Shown piece by piece: positions 5,303-52,669 of a DNA stretch of 64,000 nt. The notes below the pieces were generated by a model. It saw only the letters and a program-made list of their open reading frames with translations. It had not been told where the DNA came from and made no database searches. The stretch comes from Squalus acanthias. Its lineage: Eukaryota. The DNA is taken from positions 142,788,001 to 142,852,000 of the forward strand of contig CM059431.1 in assembly GCA_030390025.1 (NCBI GenBank), read 5' to 3'. A program made the translations under genes and the position numbers. The stretch's first letter is position 1. Each line of letters begins with the position of its first letter.

Positions 5303-5712
5303 TTGGATATTAACAGTAATGGGTAGTGAGTAGGAGGTTGGGATTAGACTAGGTGGGATATTAACGGTAATGGGTCGTGAGCAGGAGGTTGGGATTAGAC
5401 TAGGTGGGATATTAACGGTAATGGGTAGTGAGCAGGAGGTTGGGATTAGACTAGGTGGGATATTAACAGTAATGGGTAGTGAGCAGGAGGTTGGGATTAG
5501 ACTAGGTGGGATATTAACGGTAATGGGCAGTGAGCAGGAGGTTGGGATTAGACTAGGTGGGATATTAACAGTAATGGGTAGTGAGCAGGAGGTTGGGATT
5601 AGACTAGGTGGGATATTAACAGTAATGGGCAGTGAGCAGGAGGTTGGCATTAGACTAGGTGGGATATTAACGGTAATGGGTAGTGAGCAGGAGGTTGGGA
5701 TTAGACTAGGTG
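5303..5712. repeat. 51-bp minisatellite, ~8 copies
   Basis: Unit GAGCAGGAGGTTGGGATTAGACTAGGTGGGATATTAACRGTAATGGGYAGT read directly. Confidence 0.97.
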
Positions 5713-7892: not shown

Positions 7893-8350
7893 GATACCCT
7901 CCCACTGCTCCATTCACCCATTCCCAGAGTGTCAGCTGTGTCTCACTGGGTACCACACTCGTCTCTGAGTCACCCTCCCACTGCTCCATTCACCCATTCC
8001 CAGAGTGTCAGCTGTGACTCACTGGGTACCACACTAGCCCCTGAGTCACCCTCCCACTGCTCCATTCACCCATTCCCAGAGTGTCAGCTGTGTCTCACTG
8101 GGTACCACACTCGCCTGAGTCACCCTCCCACTGCTCCATTCACCCATTCCCAGAGTGTCAGCTGTATCTCACTGGGTCCCACACTCGCCCCTGAGTCACC
8201 CTCCCACTGCTCCAGTCACCCATTCCCAGAGTGTCAGCTATGTCTCACTGGGTACCACACTCGTCTCTGAGTCACCCTCCCACTGCTCCATTCACCCAAT
8301 CCCAGAGTGTCAGCTGTGACTCACTGGGTACCACACTTGCCTCTGAGTCA
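7893..8350. repeat. ~76-bp minisatellite, ~6 copies, built from a SINE head plus its 5' flank
   Basis: Unit TGAGTCACCCTCCCACTGCTCCATTCACCCATTCCCAGAGTGTCAGCTGTGTCTCACTGGGTACCACACTCG..; the last unit runs directly into the SINE. Confidence 0.93.
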
Positions 8351-13548: not shown

Positions 13549-14292
13549 AGGAACGTAGGAACAGTAGGCTATTCATTGGCTCGAGCCTGTTCCGCCGTTC
13601 AATTCAATCATGGCTGATCTTTGTCTTAACTCCATCTACCCGCCTTGGCTCCATAAGCCTAAATACCCTGGTCAAACAAAAATCTATCAAACTCAGTTCG
13701 GAAATTTTCAAATTGACCCCCAGCCTCAACAGCTGTTGAGTGCGAGTGTTCCAGATTTCCACTACCCTTTGTGTGAAGAAATGCTTTCTAACGTCACCAC
13801 TGAACGGACTAGCTCTGCTTTTAAGGTTATGCCCCCTTGTACTGGCCTCCTCCATCAGAAGAAACAGTTTCTCTCTCTTTATCTTATCAATTCCTTAGAT
13901 CATCTTAAATACCTCAATTAGATCACCCCTTAACAGTTTATATTCAAGGGAATACAAGCTTCGTCTATGCAATCAGTCTTCATAATTTAACTCTTAACTC
14001 TGAGCTGGACCACCACCAAAGCCAAGATATCCTTCCTGAGGTGCTGTGCCCAGAACAACATTGAACTCTAAATCGGTTCTAACCAGAGCTCTGTACAGGT
14101 GTATCATTACTTTTGTGTTCCAGCGATCCTGAGATAAAGCCCAACATTCCATTAGCCGTTTCACTTACTTTTGTACTTATCCACTAGCTTCGAGTAATTT
14201 CTATACTTGGAGCCATAATTCTCTCTGCTCATCCACGGTGCCTAGTCTCTCACTATTTAGAAAATACTCTGATCTCTCTTTTTAGATCCAAG
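13549..14292 (-). mobile_element. CR1 3' fragment
   Basis: ORF 13604-13855 (TRGHNLK...FFTQRVVEIWN). Confidence 0.85.
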
Positions 14293-14294
14293 AG

Positions 14295-16797
14295 GAACAG
14301 ATATGTCGGCAAATCTCAGAGAAGTGTAGAAATAATAGGGTAACAATAGTAGGGGATTTCAACTTCCCCAATATTAACTGGGATAGTCAGAGTGCGAAAG
14401 GCTTAGAGGGTGTGGAATTCTTAAAGTGCATCCAGGAGAGCTTTTTGAGCCAGCATGTAGAAAGTCCAACAAGAGAGGGGGCGGCACTGGACCTAATTCT
14501 AGGGAATGTAGCCGGGCAAGTGGTAGAAGTGTCAGTAGGAGAGCATTTTGGTGACAGTGACCATAATTCGGTGAGATTTAAGGTAGTCATGGAAAAGGAC
14601 AAAGATGGACCGGAAATAAAGGTTCTAAATTGGGTGAAGGCCGATTTTAATATGATAAGGCAGGATCTGGCCAAAGTGGACTGGGATCAGCTACTTGTAG
14701 GAAAATCCACATCAGAGCAGTGGGAGTCATTCAGAAAGGAAATAGAGAGAGTACAGCGCCAACATGTTCCTGTAAAGGTCAAGGGTGGGACCAACAAGCC
14801 CAGGGAACCCTGGATGTCAAGGAATATACAAGAATGGAGTAGGAAAAAAAGTGAGGCTTTTGGCAGATACAAAGGACTAAAAACAGTGGAAGCCCAAGAG
14901 GAGTATAGAAAGTGCAGGGGGGTACTTAAAAAAAGAAATTAGGAGAGCGAAGAGGGGGCATGAAAAAACACTAGCGGGCAAAATAAGGAAAATCCCAAGG
15001 TGTTTTATAAGTATATTAAGGGCAAGAGGATAACCAGGGAAAGAGTAGGGCCCATTAGGGACCAAAGTGGCAATCTGTGTGTAGAGCCAGAAGGTGTAGG
15101 TGAGGTTTTAAATGAATATTTTACATCTGTGTTCACTATGGAGGACAATGTAGGCATAGAAATCAGGCTGGGGAATTGTGATATACTTGAACAAATTAGC
15201 ATTGAGAGGGAGGAGGTACTAGCGGTTTTAGCGGGCTTAAAAGTGGATAAATCCCCAGGCCCAGACGAGATGTATCCCAAGCTGCTGTGTGAGGCAAGGG
15301 AGGAGATTGCAGGGGCTCTGACACAAATTTTCAGAACCTCTCTGGCCACAGGGGAGCTGCCAGAGGACTGGAGGACAGCTAACATAGTACCATTATTCAA
15401 GAAGGGTAGTAGGGATAAACCAGGGAATTACAGGCCAGTGAGCCTAACATCAGTGGCAGGGAAATTATTGGAAAAAATTCTGAGGGACAGAATTAGTCTC
15501 CACTTGGAAAGGCAAGGATTAATCAAGGATAGTCAGCATGGCTTTGTCAAGGGGAGATCATGTCTAACCAATTTGATTGAATTTTGAGAGGGGGTGACTA
15601 GGTGTGTGGATCAGGGTAGTGCAGTTGATGTAGTCTACATGGACTTCAGTAAGGCTTTTGACAAAGTCCCGCATGGGAGACTGGTCAAGAAGGTAAGAGC
15701 CCATGGGATCCAGGGCAACTTGGCACTTTGGATCCAAAATTGGCTTAGTGGCAGGAGGCAGAGGGTGATGGTCGAAGGTTGTTTTTGTGACTGGAAGCCT
15801 GTGTCCAGTGGTGTAACGCAGGGATCGGTGCTGGGTCCCTTGCTGTTTGCAACATACATTCATGATTTAGATATGAATGTAGCAGGTATGATCAGTAAGT
15901 TCGCAGATGACACGAAAATTGGTGGAGCGGTAAATAGCGAGGAGGGAAGCCTCAGGCTATAGGACGATATAGACGGGTTGGTCAGATGGGCAGAACAGCG
16001 GCAAATGGAATTTAACCCTGAAAAGTGTGAGGTGATGCATTTTGGGAGGACTAACAAGGCAAGGGAATACACAATGAATGGTAGGACCCTAGGAAGGACA
16101 GAGGATCAGAGGGACCTTGGTGTGCATGTACATAGATCCCTGAAGGCAACAGGACAGGCAGATATGGTGGTTAAGAAGGCATATGGGATACTTGCCTTCA
16201 TTAGCCGAGGCATAGAATATAAGAGCACGGAGGTTATGATGGAGCTGTACAAAACGCTAGTTAGGCCACAGCTGGAATACTGTGTGCAGTTCTGGTCACC
16301 GCACGATAGGAAGGATGTGATTGCATTGGAGAGGGTGCACATGACATTCACCAGGATGTTACCTGGGCTGGAGCGTTTCAGCTATGGAGACTGGACAGGC
16401 TGGGATTGTTTTCCTTAGAGCAGAGAAGGCGGAGGGGGGACCTGATTGAGGTGTACAAAATTATGAGGGTAGATAGAAAAGAACTTTTCCCCTTAGTAGA
16501 GGGGTCAATAACCAGGGGGCATAGTTTCAAGGTAAGGGGCAGGAGGTTTAGAGGGGATTTAAGGGAAAACTATTTCATCCAGATGGTGGTTGGAATCTGG
16601 AACTCACTGCCTGAAAGGGTGGTAGAGGCAGGAACCCTCACAGCATTCAAGCAGCATTTAGATGAGCACTTGAAACACCATAGCATACAAGGCTACAGAC
16701 CAAGTGCTGGAAAATGGGATTAGAATAGATAGAGCTTGATGGCCGGTGGGTACACGATGGGCCGAAGGGCCTCTTTCTGTGCTGTATAACTCTATGA
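14295..16797 (+). mobile_element. 5'-truncated CR1 LINE (part of endonuclease, RT, 3' end), disrupted by frameshifts and stops
   Basis: GDFN, SDHN, KSPGPD, DFSKAFDKVPH, FADD; ends in a CTCTATGAC tail. Confidence 0.95.
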
Positions 16798-21865: not shown

Positions 21866-23998
21866 ATAGGCAATGGCTAACATTTAAGGAACGAATGCAT
21901 GAATTGCAACAGTTATACATTCCTTTCTGGCGCAAAAACACAAAAGGAAAAGCGGCCCAACCATGGCTAACAAAATAAATTAAGGATAGTATTAGATCCA
22001 AAGAGGTGTCACATAAAGTTGCCAGAAAAAGTAGAAAGACTGAGGATTGGGAGCAGTTTAGAGTTCAGCAAAAAAGGACCAAGAGATTGATTAAGAGGGG
22101 AAAAATAAGTATGAGAGTAAACTTGCAAGGAACATAAAAGCGGATTGTAAAAGGTTCTACAAGTATGTAAAAAGAAAAAGATTAGTGAAAATAAATGTAG
22201 GTCCCTTACAGTCAGAAACGGGAGAAATTATAATGGGGAATATGGGAATGGTGGAGCAATTAAACACATACTTTGGTTCTGTCTTCATGGAAGAGGACAC
22301 AAATAACTTCCCAGAAATGCTAGGGAACGAAGGGTCTAGTGAGAAGGAAGAATTAAAGGCAATTAGTATTAGTAAAAAATAGTGCTGGATAAATTAATGA
22401 GACTGAAAGCCAATAAATCCCCAGGGCCTGATAATCTGCATCCCAGAGTACTAATAGAGGTAGCCATTGAAATAGTGGATGCATTGGTTGTCATCTTCCA
22501 AAATTCTATAGATTATGGAAGAGTTCCTGCAGATTGGAGGGTGGCAAATGTAACCCCACTATTTAAAAAAGGAGGGAGAGAAAACAAGGAACTACAGACC
22601 GGATAGCCTAACATCAGTAGTAGGGAAAATGTTAGAGACTATTATAAAGGATGTGATAACTGGACACTTAGAAAATATCAACGGGATTAGACAAAGTCAA
22701 CATGGATTTATGAAAGGGAAATCGTGTTTGACAAACCTACTGGAGATTTTTGAGGATGTAACTGGTAGAATAAATAAGGGAGAACCAGTGGATGTGGTTA
22801 ATTTGGATTTTCGGAAGGCCTTTGATAAAGTCCCACATAAGAGGTTAGTGTGCAAAATTAAAGCAAATGGGATTGGGGGTAATATACTGGCATGGATTGA
22901 AAATTGGTTAACAGACAGGAAACAGAGAGTAGAAATAAATGGGTCTTTTTCGGGGTGGCAGGCGGTGACTAGTGGGGGTACCAGAGGGATCAGTGCTTGG
23001 GCCCCAGCTATTCACAATATATATCAATGACTTGGATGAGGGAACCAAATGTAATATTTCCAAGTTTGCTGACGACACAAACCTAAGTGGGATTGTGAGT
23101 TGTGAGGAGGATGCAAAGAGGCTTCAAGGTGATTTAGACAAGTTGAGTGAGTGGGCAAATACATGGCAGATGCAGTATAACGTGGATAAATGTGATGCTT
23201 TCCACTTCAGTAGGAAAAACAGAAAGGCAGAGTATTATTTAAATAGTGATAGATTGGGAAATGTTGATGTACAAAGGGGCCTGGGTGTCCTTGTACACCA
23301 GTCACGGAAAGCAAACATGCAGTTGCAGCAAGCAGTTAGGAAGGCAAATGGTATGTTGGCCTTCATTGCAAGAGGATTTGAGTACAGGAGCAAGGATGTC
23401 TTACTGCAGTTGTACAGGGCCTTGATGAGACCACACCTGGAGTACTGTGTGCAGTTTTGGTATCCTTACCCAAGAAAGGATATACTTGCCATAGAGGGAG
23501 TGCAGCGAAGGTTCACCAGACTGATTCCTGGGATTGCAGGACTGTCGTATGAGGAGAGATTGGGTCAACTAGGCCTGTATTCCCAAGAGTTTAGAAGCAT
23601 GAGAGGGGATCTCATTGAAACGTTTAAAATTCTGACTGGGCTAGACAGATTGAATGCAGGGAGGATGTTTCCCCTGACTGGGGTGTCTACAACGAGGGGT
23701 CACAGTCTCAGGATACAGGGTAGGACATTTAAGACTGAGATGAGGAGAAATTTCTTCACTTAGAGGGTGGTGAACCTGTGGAATTCTCTACCACAGAAGG
23801 CTGTGGAGGTCAAGTCACTGCATATATTGAAAGAAGGAGATAGATAGATTTCTAGACACAAAAGGCATCAAGGGGTATGGGGAGAGAGCGGGAATATGCT
23901 ATTGAGATAGAGGATCAGCCATGATCATATTGAATGGCGGAGCAGGCTCGGAGGGCCAAATTGGCTACTCCTGCTCCTATTTTTCTATGTTTCTATGT
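21866..23998 (+). mobile_element. 5'-truncated CR1 LINE inserted in the 61-bp array
   Basis: ORFs 22185-23763 (KSPGPD, DFRKAFDKVPH, FADD); TTCTATGT microsatellite tail. Confidence 0.95.
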
Positions 23999-33314: not shown

Positions 33315-33853
33315 GATTAGACCGAGACAGAGGGTGGTTCAGTCTGAGAGAGGGGGGGTTCAGTCTGAGAGAGGGGACGGTTCAGTCTGAGACAGAGGGT
33401 GGTTCAGTCTGAGAGAGGGGACGGTTCAGCCTGAGAGAGGGGGCGGTTCAGTCTGAGAGAGGGGACGGTTCAGTCTGAGAGAGGGGACGGTTCAGTCTGA
33501 GAGAGGGGACGGTTCAGTCTGAGAGAGGGGACGGTTCAGTCTGAGAGAGGGGACGGTTCAGTCTGAGAGAGGGGACGGTTCAGTCTGAGAGAGGGGACGG
33601 TTCAGTCTGAGAGAGGGTGGTTCAGTCTGAGAGAGGGTGGTTCAGTCTGAGAGAGGGGACGGTTCAGTCTGAGAGAGGGTACGGTTCAGTCTGAGAGAGG
33701 GGACGGTTCAGTCTGAGAGAGGGTGGTTCAGTCTGAGAGAGGGGGGGGTTCAGTCTGAGAGAGAGGGCGGTTCAGTCTGAGAGAGGGGGGGTTCAGACTG
33801 AGAGAGGGGGCGGTTCAGTCTGAGAGGGGACGGTTCAGTCTGAGAGAGGGGAC
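33315..33853. repeat. 22-bp G-rich minisatellite (GGTTCAGTCTGAGAGAGGGGAC), left part
   Basis: Tandem unit read directly. Confidence 0.98.
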
Positions 33854-34036
33854 TGTGGTAACACTTTTCAGCTTCCTGTATGACATCACTTCCTGTAATC
33901 AGTCCAGGATAAATACTGGACTGATCAGTTAGCTCTGGAAGAGGCATAGGGTAAGACCTCTTTTGTATGCAGCACCGTTTTAAGTTGATTAAAGCTTACA
34001 TTAAGTTTACCACGCGTAAGGCTCATTCTTACGACA
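33854..34036 (+). repeat. 5' LTR (183 bp)
   Basis: Identical by eye to the 3' LTR; contains ATTAAA. Confidence 0.97.
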
Positions 34037-34115
34037 ATTTAATCAACTTTGGAAAAACTTCGCACTCAAACTTTTTGGACGAACTCGGAGCTAAGGATCC
34101 AGGGAATCACCCATC

Positions 34116-37100
34116 ATGGAAAACATCCTTAAACCATCGCGTCTTGACTTGGACCCAAACACCCCAGCAGCCGGTAAGGTGTGGAAACACTGGTATCGCA
34201 CGTTTGAGAATTTTCTTGAGTATTGCAAAGCTGATGATAACTCAAAGTTGCGGATACTCATCAACTGTGTCACCCCGAATGTATTTCAGTATGTGGAAGA
34301 CTGGGACAGTTATGAGGAGGCAATTCAGACGCTTAAGAGACTATATACTAAGACACCGAATGAGGTCTATGCTAGACATCTACTAGCTACAGCCCAACAA
34401 GGGCCGGAGGAATCCATTGATAAATTCCTCCAAGAGCTTCGCAGACTTAGTATGGACTGTAACTTTCGGGCAGCCTCAGCTGAGCTATACCGCGAAGAAA
34501 TGATCCGTGATGCCTTCATCTGCGGGCTTGCCTCCCCATTTATACGCCAGCGTCTACTGGAAAGTAAGACACTTGAGCTGCAGAGAGCTTATGACCTGGC
34601 TTGCTCTCTAGATCTGGCAAAAAGGAATGCAGACCTTTTTACAGTGCCCAGACCTCGGTCTGCTGCCTTAACTACAGTCAGGCAATTTAAGAGGCCACAG
34701 GTGAACTCTATTAGGGAGGACTTTATCCCTGACGATCGATCTGATGACTTCACTGATGAAGAGGATGATGACCCCACTGTGGCAGCCTCTTGGCAATCTA
34801 AGAAATGCTTTTTTTGTGGTGATGAGTTTCACCCTCGGAGATTCTGCCCTGCTCGCAATGCGTTTTGCAGTCATTGCAACAAAAAGGGTCATTTTGTAAA
34901 GGTTTGCCTATCAAGAGCCTCTACGAGGGCTTATCAAGCTAAGTCCTACCGAAATGCCCCAGTAAGGGCCTATCAGGATGTTCCAACTAAAAACTATCGT
35001 GCTTCCTCTCGGGTTTTTTCTCGAAGAAACACACCTAGAATTTCAGCCACTCTTTGTGCAACGACACCAATTACAGCTGCTTGTCCTCAGAATCTATTCC
35101 ATGCAGCTACAAAAGCATCAATTAATGGACATACTTTAGATGCCTTAATTGACTCAGGTAGCACTGATAGTTTCATTAGGGAACAGACTGTTGCACAGTT
35201 AAAGCTACATGTTTTTCCATCGGACCAGGCAGTTGCGATGGCTCAGTCATCACTTAATACCAGAATTTCTGGCTTCTGTGTAGTTGAAATAATGCTTAAA
35301 GGTCACAGGTATCCCTCCACCCGGCTTTCGGTGCTCAAGGACTTATGTAGTGATCTTATCTTAGGGCTGGATTTTCAAAAGCAGCATAAGAAGCTTACCA
35401 TTGAGTTCGGCGGATCCAAACCTGAACTCACTATTTCTAATATACGACCTCGATTACCGTTCTGTGCCTTGTCAGCAGCTTCACTGGATGAACCCTCACT
35501 GTTTGCCAGTATCCCTCCTCGATGCAAACCGATTATAACAAAGTCACGCCGTTTCAGTCAGGAAGACCAGTCTTTTATTGCGGCTGAGATTTCTCGGCTT
35601 TTAGCAGAGGATATCATCGAGCCTTGTTCGTCGCCATGGCGCGCCCAGGTCGTTATTGTTAAGAACCCTCTACAACCTCACAAGAAACGGCTGTGCATTG
35701 ACTATTCACAGACCATCAATCAGTATACGGACTTGGACGCATACCCATTGCCGCGCATCGATGATATGGTTAATAAATTGGCTGAGTACACGGTGTTCTC
35801 GACTTATGATCTGAAAAGCGCCTATCATCAGGTACCCTTGAAGGTCTCAGACAAGCAGTATACAGCCTTTGAAGCCAATGGGCGGCTGTATCAATTTCGT
35901 CGCCTCCCCTTTGGGGTCACTAATGGAGTGGCTGTCTTCCAGCGAGCAATGGATGACCTGGTCAAACAGGAAGACTTGAAGGATACGTTTCCTTATCTGG
36001 ACAATATTACTGTCGCAGGTCGCAATCAGCAGGAACATGACGCCAATCTCCAACGATTTTGGGATGCACTCCAGCACCGTAATTTGACATTGAATGCGGC
36101 TAAATCCATTGAGTCACAACCAACTATCAACATCCTTGGCTATTGTGTGGGCAATGGCATCATTAAACCTGACCCTGAAAGGCTTCGCCCACTCCAAGAA
36201 CTCCCGCCACCTAAGAATCCGGCCTCCTTGCGCCGGGCCCTCGGCCTGTTTGCATACTATGCGAAATGGATTCCTAACTTCTCGGACCGAATCCAACCTC
36301 TACTGAAGGCCAGCACATTCCCACTAGACACAACGGCTGTTGCAGCCTTTAACCTCCTGAAAAAGCAGTTGGAGAAAGCGGCTCTTCACTCCATCGATGA
36401 GAGTCTTCCTTTCGTGGTTGAGTGTGATGCCTCGGAGGTGGCAATCTCAGCCACTCTGAATCAGGAAGGTCGTCCGGTGGCATTTTTGTCCAGGACTTTT
36501 CAAGGGGCTGAGCTACATTATCCTCCAGTCGAGAAAGAAGCTACAGCCATCATAGAGGCAGTACGGAAGTGGAGTCATCTCCTGGCTCGCCAGCACTTTA
36601 CCTTAATCACGGACCAGCGATCGGTCGCCTTCATGCTCGATAATCGAAAACGGACCAAAATTTAAAATAATAAAATCCAGCTTTGGCGGCTGGAATTGGC
36701 CTCTTTTGGTTACACCATCCACTATCGACCTGGCAAGGAGAATGTGGCTCCGGATACCCTCACACGAGCATTCTGCTCCGCCATGGCACCCTCTACGCTC
36801 GTAGACATCCATGATGGGTTGTGTCATCCAGGCGTTACTCGCATGCTGCACTTCGTGCGGTCCCGAAATCTCCCATTCTCTACCGGGGATGTAAAGAAGA
36901 TGTGCTCGGACTGCAGAGTCTGTGCGGAATTGAAACCTCGGTTTTTCCGCCCCTCGGGTGGTATACTCATACATGCGACCCAGCCAATGCAAAGGCTTAG
37001 CATCGATTTTAAGGGGCCGTTGCCCTCTTCGACTCGCAACACTTATCTATTAACAATAGTTGATGAGTATTCTCGTTTTCCGTTTGCCTTTCCCTGCCCC

Positions 37101-38072
37101 AATATGCTGAGAACCACGGTTATCAGCTGCCTTGAACAGGTATTTGCTTTCTGTGGCATGGCATCCTATGTTCATTCAGATCGGGGCCCTTCTTTTATGT
37201 CGGGAGAACTCAAGGCCTATCTCTCGGAACGGGGTATTGCTGCCAGCAAAACGACGCCTTATCATCCGGTTGGGAATGGGCAAGTCGAGCGTTTTAACGC
37301 TATCATCTGGAATGCGGTACGTCTGGCTTTGAGATCTCGGGGCCTACCCAACCAGCATTTGGAAGCAGTACTTCCAGACGCATTACACTCCACACGGTCC
37401 CTCCTTTCGACCGCCACAAATACGACGCCTCATGAACGGTTCTTCCGATTTCAGCGTCGCTCATCCTATGGGACATCTCTCCCGTCGTGGCTGACTGCAC
37501 CGGGACCAGTGCTACTCCGAAGATATGTCCGGGCGTCTAAGAATGACCCCCTGGTAGATGAGGTTGAGCTCACTGACGTCAACCCTACCTACGCCTATAT
37601 TCGGTATCCTGACGGTCGGGAATCTACCGTGTCATTGCGGGATCTGGCTCCCTGCCCGCCGAAACATAGAGGGACACCAGGGGATGATATTGTACCAGGC
37701 ACATCTCTGGGCTTGCCAGGTGCCTCTCATCATGATCGGGATCTGACGCCGGCTGGTACCTCACTCCAGCGTGCCGACCTGGGGCAGACTGACTATGAGC
37801 CCGTCGGGGCTCGCACGCGCAGCCACGATCAACCCTGTACCGTACGCTCAGAAACGGATCTGCCACAGCCCTGCCCGACACCCATTCGGGTACCAGTACA
37901 CAGTCAGGATCGTTCTGACCCCTCACAGAGCGGGCTGGAGCACTCGGACTCTGGTCCATGGCCCGCAGCGGGTAAACGGGCTAGGGGCCCTCTACCGCTA
38001 CGAGAACCCAAACGGGTGCGGCTCTCCCTCATCCAACGGCTACGAAATGGAGGGAGCATTCCGGCCTCCTAA
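34116..38072 (+). pseudogene. Single-frame Gag-Pol (two CCHC-type knuckles, protease, RT, RNase H, integrase) interrupted by one in-frame TAA at 36663-36665
   Basis: CFFC..H....C, CSHCNKKGHFVKVC, LIDSGS, LPFG, YLDN, ECDAS, HHCC, IDFKGP..SDRG..GQVER; both ORF-track pieces are in the same frame. Confidence 0.95.
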
Positions 38073-38090
38073 TCTTTTGGGGGGGGAGAA

Positions 38091-38273
38091 TGTGGTAACA
38101 CTTTTCAGCTTCCTGTATGACATCACTTCCTGTAATCAGTCCAGGATAAATACTGGACTGATCAGTTAGCTCTGGAAGAGGCATAGGGTAAGACCTCTTT
38201 TGTATGCAGCACCGTTTTAAGTTGATTAAAGCTTACATTAAGTTTACCACGCGTAAGGCTCATTCTTACGACA
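38091..38273 (+). repeat. 3' LTR (183 bp)
   Basis: Identical by eye to the 5' LTR; preceded by the PPT. Confidence 0.97.
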
Positions 38274-41200
38274 GGGACGGTTCAGTCTGAGAGAGGGGAC
38301 GGTTCAGCCTGAGAGAGGAGACGGTTCAGTCCGAGACAGAGGGTGGTTCAGCCTGAGAGAGGGGGCGGTTCAGTCTGAGAGAGGGGGCGGTTCAGTCTGA
38401 GAGAGGGGACGGTTCAGTCTGAGAGAGGGGGCGGTTCAGTCTGAGAGAGGGGACGGTTCAGTCTGAGAGAGGGGGCGGTTCAGTCTGAGAGAGGGGACGG
38501 TTCAGCCTGAGAGAGAGGGTGGTTCAGTCTGAGAGGGGGGGGTTCAGTCTGAGAAAGGGGGCGGTTCAGTCTGAGAGAGGGGGGTTCAGCCTGAGAGAGG
38601 GGACGGTTCAGTCTGAGAGAGGGGACGGTTCAGTCTGAGAGAGGGGACGGTTCAGTCCGAGACAGGGTGGTTCAGTCTGAGAGAGGGGACGGTTCAGTCT
38701 GAGAGAGGGGACGGTTCAGACTGAGAGAGGGGACGGTTCAGTCTGAGAGAGGGGTGGTTCAGTCTGAGAGAGGGGACGGTTCAGCCTGAGAGAGGGGGCG
38801 GTTCAGACTGAGAGAGGGGGTGGTTCAGTCTGAGAGAGGGGACGGTTCAGTCTGAGAGAGGGGACGGTTCAGTCTGAGAGAGGGGACGGTTCAGTCCGAG
38901 ACAGAGGGTGGTTCAGTCTGAGAGAGGGGGTGGTTCAGTCTGAGAGAGGGGACGGTTCAGTCTGAGAGAGGGGGTGGCTCAGTCTGAGAGAGGGGTGGGT
39001 TCAGTCTGAGAGAGGGGACGGTTCAGTCTGAGAGAGGGGACGGTTCAGTCTGAGAGAGGGGACGGTTCAGTCTGAGAGAGGGGACGGTTCAGTCTGAGAG
39101 AGGGGACGGTTCAGTCTGAGAGACGGGACGGTTCAGTCCGAGAACGAGGGTGGTTCAGTCTGAGAGAGGGGGCGGTTCAGTCTGAGAGAGGGGACGGTTC
39201 AGACTGAGAGAGGGGACGGTTCAGTCTGAGAGAGGGGTGGTTCAGTCTGAGAGAGGGGACGGTTCAGCCTGAGAGAGGGGGCGGTTCAGTCTGAGAGAGG
39301 GGGTGGTTCAGGCTGAGAGAGGGGACGGTTCAGTCTGAGAGAGGGGACGGTTCAGTCTGAGAGAGGGGACGGTTCAGTCCGAGACAGAGGGTGGTTCAGT
39401 CTGAGAGAGGGGGTGGTTCAGTCTGAGAGAGGGGACGGTTCAGTCTGAGAGAGGGGGTGGTTCAGTCTGAGAGAGGGGGGGGTTCAGTCTGAGAGAGGGG
39501 ACGGTTCAGTCTGAGAGAGGGGACGGTTCAGTCTGAGAGAGGGGACGGTTCAGTCTGAGAGAGGGGACGGTTCAGTCTGAGAGAGGGGACGGTTCAGTCT
39601 GAGAGACGGGACGGTTCAGTCCGAGACAGTGGGTGGTTCAGTCTGAGAGAGGGGGGCGGTTCAGTCTGAGAGAGGGGGTGGTTCAGTCCGAGACAGAGGG
39701 TGGTTCAGTGTGAGAGAGGGGGGGTTCAGTCTGAGAGAGGGGGCGGTTCAGTCTGAGAGAGGGGGCGGTTCAGTCTGAGAGAGGGGACGGTTCAGTCTGA
39801 GAGAGGGGGCGGTTCAGTCTGAGAGAGGGGACGGTTCAGCCTGAGAGAGAGGGTGGTTCAGTCTGAGAGGGGGGGGTTCAGTCTGAGAAAGGGGGCGGTT
39901 CAGTCTGAGAGAGGGGGGTTCAGCCTGAGAGAGGGGACGGTTCAGTCTGAGAGAGGGGACGGTTCAGTCTGAGAGAGGGGACGGTTCAGTCCGAGACAGG
40001 GTGGTTCAGTCTGAGAGAGCGGACGGTTCAGTCTGAGAGAGGGGACGGTTCAGACTGAGAGAGGGGACGGTTCAGTCTGAGAGAGGGGTGGTTCAGTCTG
40101 AGAGAGGGGACGGTTCAGCCTGAGAGAGGGGGCGGTTCAGACTGAGAGAGGGTGTGGTTCAGTCTGAGAGAGGGGACGGTTCAGTCTGAGAGAGGGGACG
40201 GTTCAGTCTGAGAGAGGGGACGGTTCAGTCCGAGACAGAGGGTGGTTCAGTCTGAGAGAGGGGGTGGTTCAGTCTGAGAGAGGGGACGGTTCAGTCTGAG
40301 AGAGGGGGTGGTTCAGTCTGAGAGAGGGGTGGGTTCAGTCTGAGAGAGGGGACGGTTCAGTCTGAGAGAGGGGACGGTTCAGTCTGAGAGAGGGGACGGT
40401 TCAGTCTGAGAGAGGGGACGGTTCAGTCTGAGAGATGGGACGGTTCAGTCTGAGAGACGGGACGGTTCAGTCCGAGAACGAGGGTGGTTCAGTCTGAGAG
40501 AGGGGGCGGTTCAGTCTGAGAGAGGGGACGGTTCAGACTGAGAGAGGGGACGGTTCAGTCTGAGAGAGGGGTGGTTCAGTCTGAGAGAGGGGACGGTTCA
40601 GCCTGAGAGAGGGGGCGGTTCAGTCTGAGAGAGGGGGTGGTTCAGGCTGAGAGAGGGGACGGTTCAGTCTGAGAGAGGGGACGGTTCAGTCTGAGAGAGG
40701 GGACGGTTCAGTCCGAGACAGAGGGTGGTTCAGTCTGAGAGAGGGGGTGGTTCAGTCTGAGAGAGGGGACGGTTCAGTCTGAGAGAGGGGGTGGTTCAGT
40801 CTGAGAGAGGGGGGGGGTTCAGTCTGAGAGAGGGGACGGTTCAGTCTGAGAGAGGGGACGGTTCAGTCTGAGAGAGGGGACGGTTCAGTCTGAGAGAGGG
40901 GACGGTTCAGTCTGAGAGACGGGACGGTTCAGTCCGAGACAGTGGGTGGTTCAGTCTGAGAGAGGGGGCGGTTCAGTCTGAGAGAGGGGGTGGTTCAGTC
41001 CGAGACAGAGGGTGGTTCAGTGTGAGAGAGGGGGGGTTCAGTCTGAGAGAGGGGACGGTTCAGTCTGAGAGAGGGGACGGTTCAGTCTGAGAGAGGGTAC
41101 GGTTCAGTCTGAGAGAGGGGACGGTTCAGTCTGAGAGAGGGGACGGTTCAGTCCGAGACAGAGGGTGGTTCAGTCTGAGAGAGGGGGCGGTTCAGTCGGA

Positions 41201-44200
41201 GACAGAGGGTGGTTCAGTCTGAGAGAGGGGGCGGTTCAGTCCGAGACAGAGGGTGGTTCAGTCTGAGAGAGAGGACGGTTCAGTCTGAGAGAGGGGACGG
41301 TTCAGTCCGAGAGAGGGGACGGTTCAGTCCGAGAGAGGGGACGGTTCAGTCTGAGAGAGGGGACCGTTCAGTCTGAGAGAGGGGGTGGTTCAGTCTGAGA
41401 GAGGGGACGGTTCAGTCTGAGAGAGGGTACGGTTCAGTCTGAGAGAGGGGACGGTTCAGTCTGAGAGAGGGGACGGTTCAGTCTGAGAGAGGGGACGGTT
41501 CAGTCTGAGAGAGGGGGCGGTTCAGTCTGAGAGAGGGGGCGGTTCAGTCTGAGAGAGGGGGCGGTTGAGTCTGAGAGAGGGGACGGTTGAGTCTGAGAGA
41601 GGGGACGGTTCAGTCTGAGAGAGGGGACGGTTCAGTCTGAGAGAGGGGGTGGTTCAGTCTGAGAGAGGGGACGGTTCAGTCTGAGAGAGGGGGTGGTTCA
41701 GTCTGAGAGAGGGGTGGGTTCAGTCTGAGAGAGGGGACGGTTCAGTCTGAGAGAGGGGACGGTTCAGTCTGAGAGAGGGGACGGTTCAGTCTGAGAGAGG
41801 GGACGGTTCAGTCTGAGAGATGGGACGGTTCAGTCTGAGAGACGGGACGGTTCAGTCCGAGAACGAGGGTGGTTCAGTCTGAGAGAGGGGGCGGTTCAGT
41901 CTGAGAGAGGGGACGGTTCAGACTGAGAGAGGGGACGGTTCAGTCTGAGAGAGGGGTGGTTCAGTCTGAGAGAGGGGACGGTTCAGCCTGAGAGAGGGGG
42001 CGGTTCAGTCTGAGAGAGGGGGTGGTTCAGGCTGAGAGAGGGGACGGTTCAGTCTGAGAGAGGGGACGGTTCAGTCTGAGAGAGGGGACGGTTCAGTCCG
42101 AGACAGAGGGTGGTTCAGTCTGAGAGAGGGGGTGGTTCAGTCTGAGAGAGGGGACGGTTCAGTCTGAGAGAGGGGGTGGTTCAGTCTGAGAGAGGGGGGG
42201 GGGTTCAGTCTGAGAGAGGGGACGGTTCAGTCTGAGAGAGGGGACGGTTCAGTCTGAGAGAGGGGACGGTTCAGTCTGAGAGAGGGGACGGTTCAGTCTG
42301 AGAGAGGGGACGGTTCAGTCTGAGAGACGGGACGGTTCAGTCCGAGACAGTGGGTGGTTCAGTCTGAGAGAGGGGGCGGTTCAGTCTGAGAGAGGGGGTG
42401 GTTCAGTCCGAGACAGAGGGTGGTTCAGTGTGAGAGAGGGGGGGTTCAGTCTGAGAGAGGGGACGGTTCAGTCTGAGAGAGGGGACGGTTCAGTCTGAGA
42501 GAGGGTACGGTTCAGTCTGAGAGAGGGGACGGTTCAGTCTGAGAGAGGGGACGGTTCAGTCCGAGACAGAGGGTGGTTCAGTCTGAGAGAGGGGGCGGTT
42601 CAGTCGGAGACAGAGGGTGGTTCAGTCTGAGAGAGGGGGCGGTTCAGTCCGAGACAGAGGGTGGTTCAGTCTGAGAGAGAGGACGGTTCAGTCTGAGAGA
42701 GGGGACGGTTCAGTCCGAGAGAGGGGACGGTTCAGTCCGAGAGAGGGGACGGTTCAGTCTGAGAGAGGGGACCGTTCAGTCTGAGAGAGGGGGTGGTTCA
42801 GTCTGAGAGAGGGGACGTTTCAGTCTGAGAGAGGGTACGGTTCAGTCTGAGAGAGGGGACGGTTCAGTCTGAGAGAGGGGACGGTTCAGTCTGAGAGAGG
42901 GGACGGTTCAGTCTGAGAGAGGGGGCGGTTCAGTCTGAGAGAGGGGGCGGTTCAGTCTGAGAGAGGGGGCGGTTCAGTCTGAGAGAGGGGACGGTTGAGT
43001 CTGAGAGAGGGGACGGTTGAGTCTGAGAGAGGGGACGGTTCAGTCTGAGAGAGGGGACGGTTCAGTCTGAGAGAGGGGACGGTTCAGTCTGAGAGAGGGG
43101 ACGGTTCAGTCTGAGAGATGGGGCGGTTCAGTCTGAGAGAGGGGACGGTTCAGTCTCAGAGAGGGGACGGTTCAGTCTGAGAGAGGGGATGGTTCAGTCT
43201 GAGAGAGGGGGTGGTTCAGTCCGAGACAGAGGGTGGTTCAGTCTGAGAGAGGGGACGGTTCAGTCTGAGAGAGGGGACGGTTCAGTCTGAGAGAGAGGAC
43301 GGTTCAGTCTGAGAGAGGGGATGGTCCAGTCTGAGAGAGGGGACGGTTCAGTCTGAGAGAGGGGGCGGTTCAGTCTGAGAGAGGGGACGGTTCAGTCTGA
43401 GAGAGAGGACGGTTCAGTCTAAGAGAGGGGACGGTTCAGTCTGAGAGAGGGGTGGTTCAGACTGAGAGAGGGGGCGGTTCAGTCTGAGAGAGGGGACGGT
43501 TCAGACTGAGAGAGGGGACGGTTCAGTCTGAGAGAGGGGACGGTTCAGTCTGAGAGAGGGGACGGTTCAGTCTGAGAGAGAGGACGGTTCAGTCTGAGAG
43601 AGCGGTGGTTCAGACTGAGAGAGGGTGGTTCAGACTGAGAGAGGGGTGGTTCAGACTGAGAGAGGGTGGTTCAGACTGAGAGAGGGGGCGGTTAAGACTG
43701 AGAGAAGGGACGGTTCAGCCTGAGAGAGGGGGCGGTTCAGTCTGAGAGAGGGGACGGTTCAGGCTGAGAGGGGCGGTTCAGTCTGAGAGAGGGGCCGGTT
43801 CAGTCTGAGAGGGGCTGTTCAGTCTGAGAGAGGGGACGGTTCAGTCTGAGAGAGGGGGGTTCAGTCTGAGAGACGGGGGTTCAGTCTGAGAGAGGGGGGG
43901 TTTCAGTCTGAGAGAGGGGACGGTTCAGTCTGAGGGGACGGTTCAGTCTGAGAGAGGCGACGGTTCAGACTGAGAGAGGGGACCGTTCAGTCTGAGAGAG
44001 GGTGGGGTGTTCAGTCTGAGAGAGGGGGGTTCAGTATGAGAGAGGGGACGGTTCAATCTGAGAGAGGGGACGGTTCAGTCTGAGAGAGGAGGCAGTTCAG
44101 TCTGAGAGAGGGGACGGTTCAATCTGAGAGGACGGTTCAGTCTGAGAGAGGGGACGGTTCAGTCTGAAAGAGGGGGGGTTCAGTCTGAGAGAGGGGGGTT

Positions 44201-44745
44201 CAGTCTGAGAGAGGGGATGGTTCAGTCTGAGAGAGGGGGTGGTTCAGTCTGAGAGAGGGGGCGGTTCAGTCTGAGAGAGGGGACCATTCAGCCTGATGAG
44301 GGGGCGTTCAGTCTGAGAGAGGGGACGGTTCAGCCTGACAGAGGGGGCTGTTCAGCCTGAGAGAGGGGGCGGTTCAGTCTGAGCGAGGGGTGTTCAGTCT
44401 GAGAGAGGGGCTGTTCAGTCTGAGAGAGGGACGGTTCATTTTGAGAGAGGGGGCGGTTCAGTCTGAGAGAGGGTGTGTTCAGTCTGAGAGAGGGGCGGTT
44501 CAGTCTGAGAGAGGGGACGGTTCAGTCTGAGAGAGGGGGCGGTTCAGTCTGAGAGAGACGGGGTTCAGTCTGAGAGAGGGGCGGTTCAGTCTGAGAGAGG
44601 CGGCGGTTCAGTCTGAGAGAGGGGACGGTTCATTCTGAGAGAGGTGGCGGTTCAGTCTGAGAGAGGCGGGGTTCAGTCTGAGAGAGGGGGCTGTTCAGTC
44701 TGAGAGAGGAGGGGTTCAGTCTGAGAGAGGGGGCGGTTCAGACTG
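38274..44745. repeat. 22-bp G-rich minisatellite, main array (~6.5 kb, roughly 290 units) with higher-order repeats
   Basis: Tandem unit read directly; variant units recur every 1.3-1.4 kb. Confidence 0.98.
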
Positions 44746-44748
44746 ACG

Positions 44749-45527
44749 GATTCACCAGTGCTGTGAGATAAGACTCACTGTTAATACTGCAGGAGTGGGA
44801 CCAGTACCAGCACTGACAGAGTGAGGGATTCACCAGTGCTGTGTGATAAGACTCACTGTTAATACTGCAGGAGTGGGACCAGTACCAGCACTGACAGAGT
44901 GAGGGATTCACCAGTGCTGTGTGATAAGACTCACTGTTAATACTGCAGGAGTGGGACCAGTACCAGCACTGTTAGAGTGAGGGATTCACCAGTGCTGTGA
45001 GATAAGGCTCACTGTTAATACTGCAGGAGTTGTTCCAGTACCAGCACTGACAGAGAGAGGGATTCACCAGAGCTGTGAGATAAGGCTCACTGTTAATACT
45101 GGAGGAGTGGGACCAGTACCAGCACGGACAGAGTGAGGGATTCACCAGTGCTGTGAGATAAGGCTCACTGTTAATACTGCAGGAGTTGTTCCAGTACCAG
45201 CACTGACAGAGTGAGGGATTCACCAGAGCTGTGAGATAAGGCTCACTGTTAATACTGGAGGAGTGGGACCAGTACCAGCTCTGACAGAGTGAGGGATTCA
45301 CCAGTGCTGTGAGATAAGACTCACTGTTAATACTGCAGGAGTGGGACCAGTACCAGCACTGACAGAGTGAGGGATTCACCAGTGCTGTGAGATAAGGCTC
45401 ACTGTTAATACTGCAGGAGTGGGTCCAGTCCCAGCTCTGACAGAGTGAGGGATTCACCATTACTGTGAGATAAGGCTCACTGTTAATACTGCAGGAGTGG
45501 GACCAGTACCAGCACTGACAGAGTGAG
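44749..45527. repeat. 78-bp minisatellite, ~10 copies
   Basis: Unit GGATTCACCAGTGCTGTGAGATAAGRCTCACTGTTAATACTGCAGGAGTGGGACCAGTACCAGCACTGACAGAGTGAG. Confidence 0.97.
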
Positions 45528-45544
45528 GTATTCCTTAAGAGTGA

Positions 45545-50530: not shown

Positions 50531-52580
50531 ATAGAAACATAGAAGATAGGAGCAGGAGTAGGCCATTTGGCCCCTCTAGCCTGCTCCGCCATTCAATGTG
50601 ATCATGGCTGTTCATCCAAACTCAGTACCCTGTACCTGCTTTCTCCCCATATCCCTTGATCCCTTGATCCCTTTAGCCTTAAGAAATATATCATAGAATC
50701 ACAGAATCCCCACAGTGCTGGTAGAGGCCATTTCGGCCCATCGAGCCCATATCCCACCCTATCCCCGTAACCCCACGTATTTATTCCCCCCCTAACACTA
50801 AGGGTCAATTTATCATAGCCAAATGAACCTAACCTGCACATCTTTGGACTGTGGGAGGAAACCGTAGCACCCAGAGGAAACCCACGCAGACACGGGGAGA
50901 ACGTGCAAACTCCACACAGTCACCCGAGGCCGGATTCGAACCCGAGTCCCTGGCGCTGTGAGGCAACAGTGCTAACCACTATGCCACCGTGTTGCCCCTC
51001 CTTGAATATATTTAATGAATTGTCCTCTACTGCCTTCTGTGGTAGAGAATTCCACAGGTTCACCACTCTCTGGGTGAAGAAATTCCTCCTCATTTCTGTC
51101 CTGAATGGCTTACCCCTTATCCTTAGACTGTGACCCCTGGTTCTGGACTCCCCCGCCATCGTGAACATCCTTCCTGCATCTAGTCTGTCCAGTCCTTTCA
51201 GAATTTTACAAGTTTCAATGAGATCACCTCTCATTCTTCTAAACTCCAGCGAGTATAAGCCCAATTGACCCAATCTCTCCTCATACGTCATTCCTGCCAT
51301 CCCAGGTATCAGCCTGGTGAATCTTCGCTGAAATCCTTCCATGGCAAGAACCTCCTAAGGCGATAAGGTGACCAAAACTGCACACAATACTCAAGATGTG
51401 GTCTCACCAAGGCCCTGTACAACTGCAGCAAGACATCCTTGTTCCTGTACTCAAACCCTCTCGCTACGAAGGCCAACATACCACTTGCCTTCTTTACTGC
51501 GTGCTGCACCTGCATGCTTACCTTCAGTGACTGGTGCACAAGGACACCCAGGTCTCGTTGCACTTCCCCATTCTCCCAGTCTATTGCCATTCAGATAATA
51601 ATCTGCCTTCCTGTTTTTGACACCAAAGTGGATAACCTCGCATTTATCCACGTTATATTGCATCTGCCATGCTTCTGCCCAATCACCCAACCTGTCCAAA
51701 TCATCCTGGAGTTTCTTGGCATCCTCCTCACAGCACACACTCCCACCCAGCTTTGTGTCGTCTGCAAACTTGGAGATATTACATCTAGTTCCCTTGTCTA
51801 GTTCATGAATATATATTGTGAATAGCTGGGGTCCAAGGACCGATCCCTGCGGTACCCCACTAGTCACTGCCTGCCACTCGGAAAATGACCCGTTTATTCC
51901 AACTCTTTGCTTCCTGTCTGCTAACCAGTTCTCTATCCAAGTCAATACCTTGCCCCCAATCCCATGTGCCTTAACTTTACACGCTAATCTCTTATGCGGG
52001 ACCTTATCGAAAGCCTTTTGAAAGTCCAAATACACCACATCCACTGGTTCTCCCTTATCTATTCTACCAGTTACATCCTCAAAAAATTCCAGTAGATTAG
52101 TCAAGCACGATTTACCTTTTGTAAATCCATGTTGACTTTGTCCGATCCTGTCACTGTTTTCCAAGTGCTCTGCTATTCCATCTTTTATAATGGACTCTAG
52201 CATTTTCCCCACTACCGATGTCGGGCTTACCGGTCTGTAATTCCCCGTTTTCTCTCTGCCACCTTTTTTGAATAGTGGGGTAACATTAGCTACCCTCCAA
52301 TCCATGGGAACTGTTCCAGAGTCTATAGAATGTTGGAAGATGATCAGCAATGCATCTACTATTTCTAGGGCCACTTCCTTAAGTACCCTAGGCTGTAGAT
52401 TATCAGGCCCTGGGGATTTATCGGCCTTCAATCCCGCCAATTTCCCTAACACCATTTCCCTACAAATACTGATTTCTTTCAGTTCCTCCCTCTCATTAGA
52501 TCGTATGTTCCCTGACATCTCTGGGAGGTTATTTGTGTCCTCCTTTGTGAAGACAGAACCAAAATATGTATTTAATTGGT
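50530..52580 (-). mobile_element. 5'-truncated CR1 LINE interrupted by a SINE
   Basis: ORF 51451-52518 is a 355-aa RT (DFQKAFDKVPH, VPQGSVLGP, FADD). Confidence 0.95.
50692..50997 (-). mobile_element. tRNA-derived V-SINE (HE1-like) nested in the CR1
   Basis: Minus strand shows box A TGGCATAGTGG, box B GGTTCGAATCC, V-domain TGTGTGGAGTTTGCACGTTCTCCCCGTGTCTGCGTGGGTTTCC and a CR1-like tail. Confidence 0.88.
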
Positions 52581-52669
52581 CTCCTTCTACCCCCTTTAGT
52601 CTGAGCCCATCTTTTGTCGTACTTGGCTTCTGTGAAGCACCTTGCGATGTGTTTCAATGGACAAGTTGG

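Follow-up and report, generated by a model that had tools for sequence, protein, structure and literature searches.

The window analyzed here, a 64,000-nt stretch of the Squalus acanthias genome (GCA_030390025.1, contig CM059431.1), contains a Ty3/Gypsy retrotransposon that carries, in place of a tRNA primer-binding site, 12 nucleotides complementary to a segment of its own long terminal repeat (LTR). As judged by sequence comparison, this pairing with the element's own LTR is a real and lineage-wide feature. Reverse transcription of the element is likely primed by a fragment of its own RNA, released by a cut in the 5' copy of the segment at an AAA/GC junction. We infer self-priming, as a sequence-only reading had proposed, from the covariation of the two segments at a fixed register, the lack of a match to tRNA 3' ends, a control with TGG-type primer sites and the breakpoints of rearranged copies.

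The window element (4.4 kb in total) has the two TG...CA LTRs, target-site duplication and polypurine tract (PPT) of a Ty3/Gypsy element and the same Gag-PR-RT-RH-IN domain order; protease, RT, RNase H and integrase were all detected with Pfam. The closest solved structure to its RT is that of Ty3 (4ol8, E 1e-45), and its Gag fell only into generic Gag clusters of the ESM Atlas. The CCHC motifs confirmed the two Gag knuckles of the earlier description, which are also present in 111 of 120 homologs. Likewise, no chromodomain was found by Pfam in the window element, in 39 aligned proteins (35 with an integrase) or in the domain lists of the 120 homologs. An in-frame stop in the RNase H region (36663–36665) breaks the gag-pol of this copy, despite its identical LTRs. 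The window element is young and belongs to a non-chromovirus lineage of Ty3/Gypsy retrotransposons; its features are as follows:

33849–33853, + strand: left target-site duplication GGGAC, from sequence comparison
33854–34036, + strand: 5' LTR, 183 bp, TG...CA, identical to the 3' LTR
33908–33915, + strand: TATA-like box GATAAATA, putative function; two sister families have TATAAATA at the corresponding position
33937–33938, + strand: predicted transcription start, about 29–30 nt past the TATA-like box; the L341/L345 copy-back ends here
33982–33993, + strand: predicted self-primer segment, including ATTAAA at 33988–33993
33993–33995, + strand: AAA/GC junction, the predicted cut, from the motif among relatives and the breakpoints of rearranged copies
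33994–34008, + strand: second helix, directly 3' of the primer segment, in predicted folds
34015–34033, + strand: third helix (U5 stem-loop) ahead of the LTR end, in predicted folds; similar stem in family B
34038–34049, + strand: putative primer-binding site complementary to the element's own LTR, beginning one base past the LTR end
34116–38072, + strand: gag-PR-RT-RH-IN in a single frame, ATG at 34116, no chromodomain
34806–34907, + strand: two CCHC zinc knuckles of Gag (CX2CX4HX4C at 34806–34847 and 34866–34907)
36978–37268, + strand: integrase core (Pfam rve)
38079–38090, + strand: polypurine tract
38091–38273, + strand: 3' LTR, its ATTAAA (38225–38230) without a downstream partner
38274–38278, + strand: right target-site duplication GGGAC

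Positions 34038–34049 and 33982–33993 are exact reverse complements over 12 bp. As first read from the sequence, only one base (34037) lies between the LTR end and the site, there is no TGG-starting tRNA site after the 5' LTR, and the LTR partner includes an ATTAAA. This ATTAAA is the sole AATAAA or ATTAAA of the LTR. A blind helix search recovered the same 12 bp, a length reached by 0/384 shuffles over all loci. The surrounding 91-nt region folds at z = -2.94, with 2/200 shuffles equally good. Core pairs of this local 5' duplex have a predicted probability of about 1.0, and the last two A-U pairs, at the end where priming would begin, only 0.27 and 0.56.

DNA evidence for the wider lineage came from 80 metagenome loci and the host genome; homologs known by name were compared as proteins only. 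A set of 20 elements, including the window's, had the LTR end fixed from both LTRs, with 7 incomplete pairs and 2 without a CA end omitted. A Watson-Crick helix of 11–19 bp between the post-LTR site and the element's own LTR is present in 17 of the 20 and begins one base past the CA in 16 of those 17. Of the three without such a helix, one has a deletion at its LTR end, one a mis-set end and one a single mismatch. The blind search covered 48 loci, several of them near-copies (50 of the 80 loci, those with a match extending to the Gag start, together with the window and less 3 that were too short). It returned a helix of at least 11 bp in 38/48 loci versus 3/384 shuffles, with 34 in the register one base past the CA. 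Two of the 10 loci without such a helix have a one-mismatch duplex. Furthermore, all 14 TGG-type primer sites used as a control from the same genome pair over 6 bp or less with upstream sequence.

Covariation was scored in 31 elements chosen among duplex carriers, one or a few per family and with the register optimised, a choice that favours the own-LTR score. Positions 5–12 pair at 7.87 of 8 with the element's own LTR and at 3.99 of 8 with the other LTRs, and the observed own-LTR total was reached by 0/100,000 permutations. Most duplex positions show three or four distinct pair types. Nearly all 31 elements have AAA at the end of the LTR strand, followed by RCCT or a close variant. In most of the 31 folds the RCCT opens a second predicted hairpin, so that a hairpin beginning right after the primer segment is predicted in most relatives, and one or two extra helices are predicted as local hairpins. 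The letters of the two strands shift together between families while the register stays fixed; the compensatory changes by which the pairing might be checked among relatives are indeed there.

Paired double changes also occur within families. For example, they separate L053 from L045, and in family B two subfamilies differ by a C-G versus T-A double change, with CpG on both sides. A U-G class of family B (10 copies) has C in the 3' LTR in 6 copies, T in both LTRs in 2 and no reachable 3' LTR in 2, and is mostly later CpG decay. At position 7, site variants had a matching LTR change in 0/16 copies of families A–C (among 30 loci), which fits decay after insertion.

The likely self-priming mechanism would proceed as follows. 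Transcription would begin near 33937–33938, a start placed by the usual TATA-to-start spacing. In the RNA, the R segment 33982–33993 would pair with 34038–34049, beside two smaller helices, and a cut at the 3' end of the segment (AAA/GC, give or take a base or two) would leave a 3'-OH. By analogy with Tf1, the cutting enzyme would probably be the element's RNase H. The RT would copy from 34037 back to about 33994, yielding a strong-stop DNA of about 44 nt that would jump to the 3' LTR via the short stretch of R left from the cut to the poly(A) site. Trimmed to about 11–13 nt, the primer would remain attached and be copied by the plus strand. Such copying would regenerate the site from the LTR and thus keep the two segments complementary. 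The TATA-like box lies 75, 91 and 90 nt ahead of the paired segment in three families of the genome. This spacing predicts a start about 45–60 nt upstream of the segment and suggests that the primer lies inside R, probably not at the 5' end of the RNA.

Rearranged genomic copies bear on the predicted cut. A pattern for any family-A breakpoint within 33982–34001 had 15 matches and its control 23, so chance core matches are to be expected. The 15 comprised 3 chance matches, 3 small indels, 6 deleted LTRs (from three insertions), 2 solo fragments and 1 break at 33988. Five of the six insertions with a true breakpoint in this interval break at 33993–33998 (AAA/GC): three in which both LTRs lack everything from U3 to the primer segment, and two solo 42-bp fragments that start at 33995. 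Counted as independent events, the ratio may be only three of four, since a second derived feature is common to two of the three deleted-LTR insertions, which probably descend from a single parent; their junction sits in a 5-nt microhomology, and the set is also small. In family B, L344 breaks at the same AAA/GC junction.

The three deleted-LTR elements (L345, L346 and L359; host C1:233.41 Mb, C4:24.61 Mb and C10:28.81 Mb) were found among more than 1,500 candidates. All are insertions with target-site duplications, with both LTRs reduced to about 60 bp that lack promoter, primer segment and poly(A) signal, and with an abnormal join after the 5' LTR. An LTR without the primer segment would reach both daughter LTRs only if the strong-stop DNA stops at or after the segment. 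No clear target-site duplication flanks the solo LTR ends (L350 1516–1557 and L363 1516–1557). The primer-site sequence occurs again about 75 nt upstream of L350, recalling the integrase-independent insertion of Tf1 at primer-site homology, and there is a tRNA-like sequence at a distance of about 230 nt from L363.

We also identified four copies (two of family A and two of family B; control, 0) in which the site is followed by LTR sequence from upstream of the segment, in reverse complement. The L341 copy-back is 56 nt long, 100% identical to a subfamily LTR, and ends 29 nt past the first base of the TATA-like box; like the TATA spacing, it speaks for a transcription start upstream of the segment. 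The other three pass the predicted start into U3. A second breakpoint at AAA/GC was found incidentally in three of the four copies. Both family-A copy-backs are deleted-LTR insertions, which cannot fold back on themselves. Their occurrence in such rare elements suggests that removal of the primer tail normally follows when matching R DNA is present.

The copy-backs also bear on the closest rival, in which the 3'-LTR copy of the segment would do the priming: the 3' end of the same genomic RNA or of its partner, cut or deadenylated to AAA, would anneal to the site. Extension into U3 in three of the four copy-backs, with L343 running through the PPT into the internal 3' end, is what such a primer could leave behind, and a poly(A)-like hexamer closes the segment in 21/31 elements. 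However, the U3-running copy-backs also fit DNA fold-back or read-through transcripts, and plus-strand DNA fold-back accounts for L344. Against the 3' copy, furthermore, the breakpoints cluster at AAA/GC, where a template cut in its 5' copy would end, the L341 copy-back halts at the predicted start, and the core of the local 5' duplex is predicted to be almost always paired. We thus consider priming by the 3' copy unlikely.

Priming by the 5' copy is also consistent with a mutation hot spot. The first base past the 13-bp duplex of family B differs from the reference copy (to A, G, C, T or a deletion) in 8/38 and 10/25 copies of two subfamilies, counts that sub-lineages may inflate; the other 29 positions have at most 1 and 3 differences, respectively. 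This base is also variable in family C and between L053 and L045. The pattern fits, by analogy with Tf1, a plus strand that ends past a retained primer copy of about 12–13 nt and gains a non-templated base.

The sequence-only reading had further proposed that the duplex hides the poly(A) signal of the 5' LTR and leaves that of the 3' LTR free. Folding supports this proposal in the window family: the ATTAAA is predicted to be 0–11% unpaired with the site present, and its first five bases 55–97% unpaired in two 3'-LTR contexts. It does not extend across the lineage, with a canonical hexamer at the duplex end in only 16 of the 31 chosen elements, a variant in 5 and none in 10 (about 6 once decay and a single register shift are taken into account). 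In 3/31 elements a canonical hexamer is free in the loop, outside the duplex. Masking is plausible for the window family, likely as a side benefit and not as the conserved core of the structure.

These data also address the rival in which the duplex is only a regulatory hairpin, hiding the 5' poly(A) signal (or the start codon in some relatives), and another RNA primes. The contrast between masked 5' and exposed 3' contexts, the canonical hexamers in half of the duplexes and the helix of L041, which reaches the Gag ATG, are what this explanation predicts. Yet the hexamer is missing or free in the loop in many elements, and the register one base past the CA, the absence of an alternative primer site, the breakpoints and the hot spot would all go unexplained. 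A purely regulatory role is thus quite improbable.

Still less probable is a host tRNA, tRNA fragment or small RNA that primes at the site, with the LTR complement incidental or competing. No match to a tRNA 3' end was found for the site: a pattern search of the host genome for the complement at a tRNA 3' end had 2 matches versus 6 for the control, and ARAGORN calls neither one a tRNA. For internal tRNA fragments the comparison was swamped by LTRs; this pattern had 2001 matches, and among the 100 listed almost all are LTRs (family B). An Rfam tRNA search, in which 63 of 369,166 candidates were scored, identified Lys or Cys tRNAs at the 5 loci checked, and there was no Rfam match within 33854–34130. 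The number of tRNA candidates scored leaves some room for a host primer, as does the occurrence of the same 12 letters at the site in the window family and in the distant L045 group. However, the lineage has many different site sequences, each tracking its own LTR, and the site of the window lacks the context of a tRNA 3' end. That the site changes with each LTR is a stronger argument against a tRNA than the tRNA searches. Finally, a chance inverted repeat in AT-rich sequence, for which one could cite a short, A/T-rich helix and a 191-nt leader that folds at z = -1.97 only, is contradicted by the recurrence, the covariation and the TGG-site control and hardly deserves consideration.

Placement of the RT supports a distinct lineage. 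Within the Gypsy tree, 28 RT-RH sequences that are 48–83% identical to the window element group as a separate clade (100/99) with a long stem. The position of this clade relative to other Gypsy elements is less firm, since the two outgroups from the same genome (29–32% identity), which branch apart from it, are long-branched elements that we take to be Mag-like and CsRN1-like from their motifs. Homologs known by name (as proteins) come from Palaemon, Armadillidium, Actinostola, Clavelina, Apostichopus and Paragonimus, hosts that include crustaceans, a cnidarian, a tunicate, an echinoderm and a flatworm; no relatives were found among viral contigs. In four members (L037, L041, L045 and L054) the leader is only 16–19 nt, and the duplex extends up to, or almost up to, the Gag start codon. 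With leaders this short, the priming structure could couple to translation.

The Mag lineage and the CsRN1 clade, which are tRNA-primed, resemble the window lineage in their animal hosts, PR-RT-RH-IN order and lack of a chromodomain. Mag also has two Gag knuckles. Membership in Mag was rejected for the window element, which has no TGG site and whose RT-RH does not group with the one Mag-like outgroup, a label of our own assignment. Since no chromodomain was found, the window element was also kept out of Tf1/sushi. A search of the host genome for Tf2-type SH3 domains yielded weak matches only. Such matches occur in the outgroup loci L283–L287 and L294, which have RTs 25–28% identical to that of the window and, in L294, long LTRs; these are probably endogenous retroviruses.

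The nearest mechanistic parallels are Tf1 and Tf2 of Schizosaccharomyces pombe, Tj1 of S. japonicus and other Tf1/sushi elements, including plant Tcn1, which also have a site complementary to an R segment instead of a tRNA site. Published work on Tf1 describes a primer consisting of the RNA's initial 11 bases, with RNase H cutting between bases 11 and 12 (PMC7175516). It also describes a primer that is kept and copied into plus-strand DNA, and an RT that adds non-templated bases (PMC11042837). A three-duplex structure is reported to be common to the chromodomain-bearing Tf1/sushi group (PMC10085805; PMC4600332; PMC5341516). Tf1 and the window lineage share a similar duplex length (11 nt in Tf1) and, as predicted here, flanking helices and copying of the primer into plus-strand DNA. 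Unlike Tf1/sushi elements, the window lineage lacks a chromodomain and has two Gag knuckles. Its segment lies 75–91 nt past the TATA-like box and so probably inside R rather than in the first RNA bases, and ends in a conserved AAA/RCCT that often forms a poly(A) hexamer. The flanking helices also differ, being predicted as local hairpins in the loop in the window lineage, whereas the Tf1 'pretzel' pairs PBS-adjacent with LTR sequence (PMC10085805).

Other elements share parts of this arrangement. A plant survey predicts self-priming for Tcn1 and for the TAR lineage of Ty1/copia (Houba, Osr-1), the latter, as here, from complementarity between site and LTR (PMC6317226). TAR differs from the window lineage in superfamily, domain order and host range. 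The Conserved Hairpin Site of fungal GalEa and the polypyrimidine site of Dictyostelium Skipper likewise replace the tRNA site with a non-TGG site, but are reported to have no LTR complement (PMC5445492; PMC5006619), whereas this complement is the conserved feature of the window lineage.

The window lineage may also correspond to a clade already defined on other grounds, such as a MolGy, PolGy or LGF clade. Surveys of molluscs and annelids define many MolGy and PolGy clades, and their main text gives no primer data (PMC6238403; PMC8556966). The window RT motif is absent from four supplement files of the former (PMC6238403). In the open literature searched, we found no account of an animal Gypsy lineage outside the chromoviruses that primes itself; an earlier description may exist, above all in Repbase Reports. 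Repbase may have a group name, 'Selfy', for self-primed Gypsy elements. The name had no match in the literature search and does not occur in the main text of PMC2836005.

In the host genome, at least three families of the lineage are abundant, with 1563 candidates for the window LTR plus leader, 3975 for Gag and about 2000 family-B LTRs. The window family is young: the 40 copies scored among these candidates show 100% identity across LTR and leader, and all 30 copies fetched, which were selected for identity, have the same primer site. The window copy is inserted within a 22-bp tandem array (33336–33853, 24 copies; 38274–44746, 297 copies). However, the flanks of the 30 copies (29 besides the window's own) are unrelated and give no sign of targeting. 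L007, L022 and L030 interrupt LTR-like sequence belonging to a sister subfamily. The window also contains further minisatellite arrays with periods of 23–80 bp (1–2325, 5305–5712, 7896–8350, 44739–45533 and others) and fragments matching RT/endonuclease at 51451–52653 (- strand), 22969–23763 (+ strand) and 14286–14942 (+ strand) that are probably LINE remnants.

The best reading of these comparisons is a likely Tf1-like self-priming in a non-chromovirus lineage, a variant of a known mechanism. We put forward only tentatively a broader proposal, in which a widespread animal Gypsy lineage would have evolved self-priming independently of Tf1/sushi and in a new arrangement. Here the RNA would have a capped leader of about 56 nt that is cut at AAA/RCCT, with the hexamer as the 3' end of the primer. 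One duplex would then silence the 5' poly(A) signal, supply the primer and set the short R remnant used in strand transfer. The tail would be trimmed only after matching R DNA is made, hence the copying of the whole primer in R-deleted elements.

In the literature consulted, self-priming among Gypsy elements is tied to Tf1/sushi chromoviruses, and one review argues that hairpin priming is the ancestral state (PMC3601003). A second large self-priming lineage, currently multiplying in animals, would make the question of ancestral versus convergent origin testable. The window lineage would also add an example, from a vertebrate, of an RNA duplex cut by RNase H, and its rearranged genomic copies yield base-level predictions for the cut site and the transcript start. 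Annotation tools that require a tRNA site would miss or misjudge self-priming elements. Such elements would need no host tRNA and would, we infer, evade targeting by tRNA 3' fragments.
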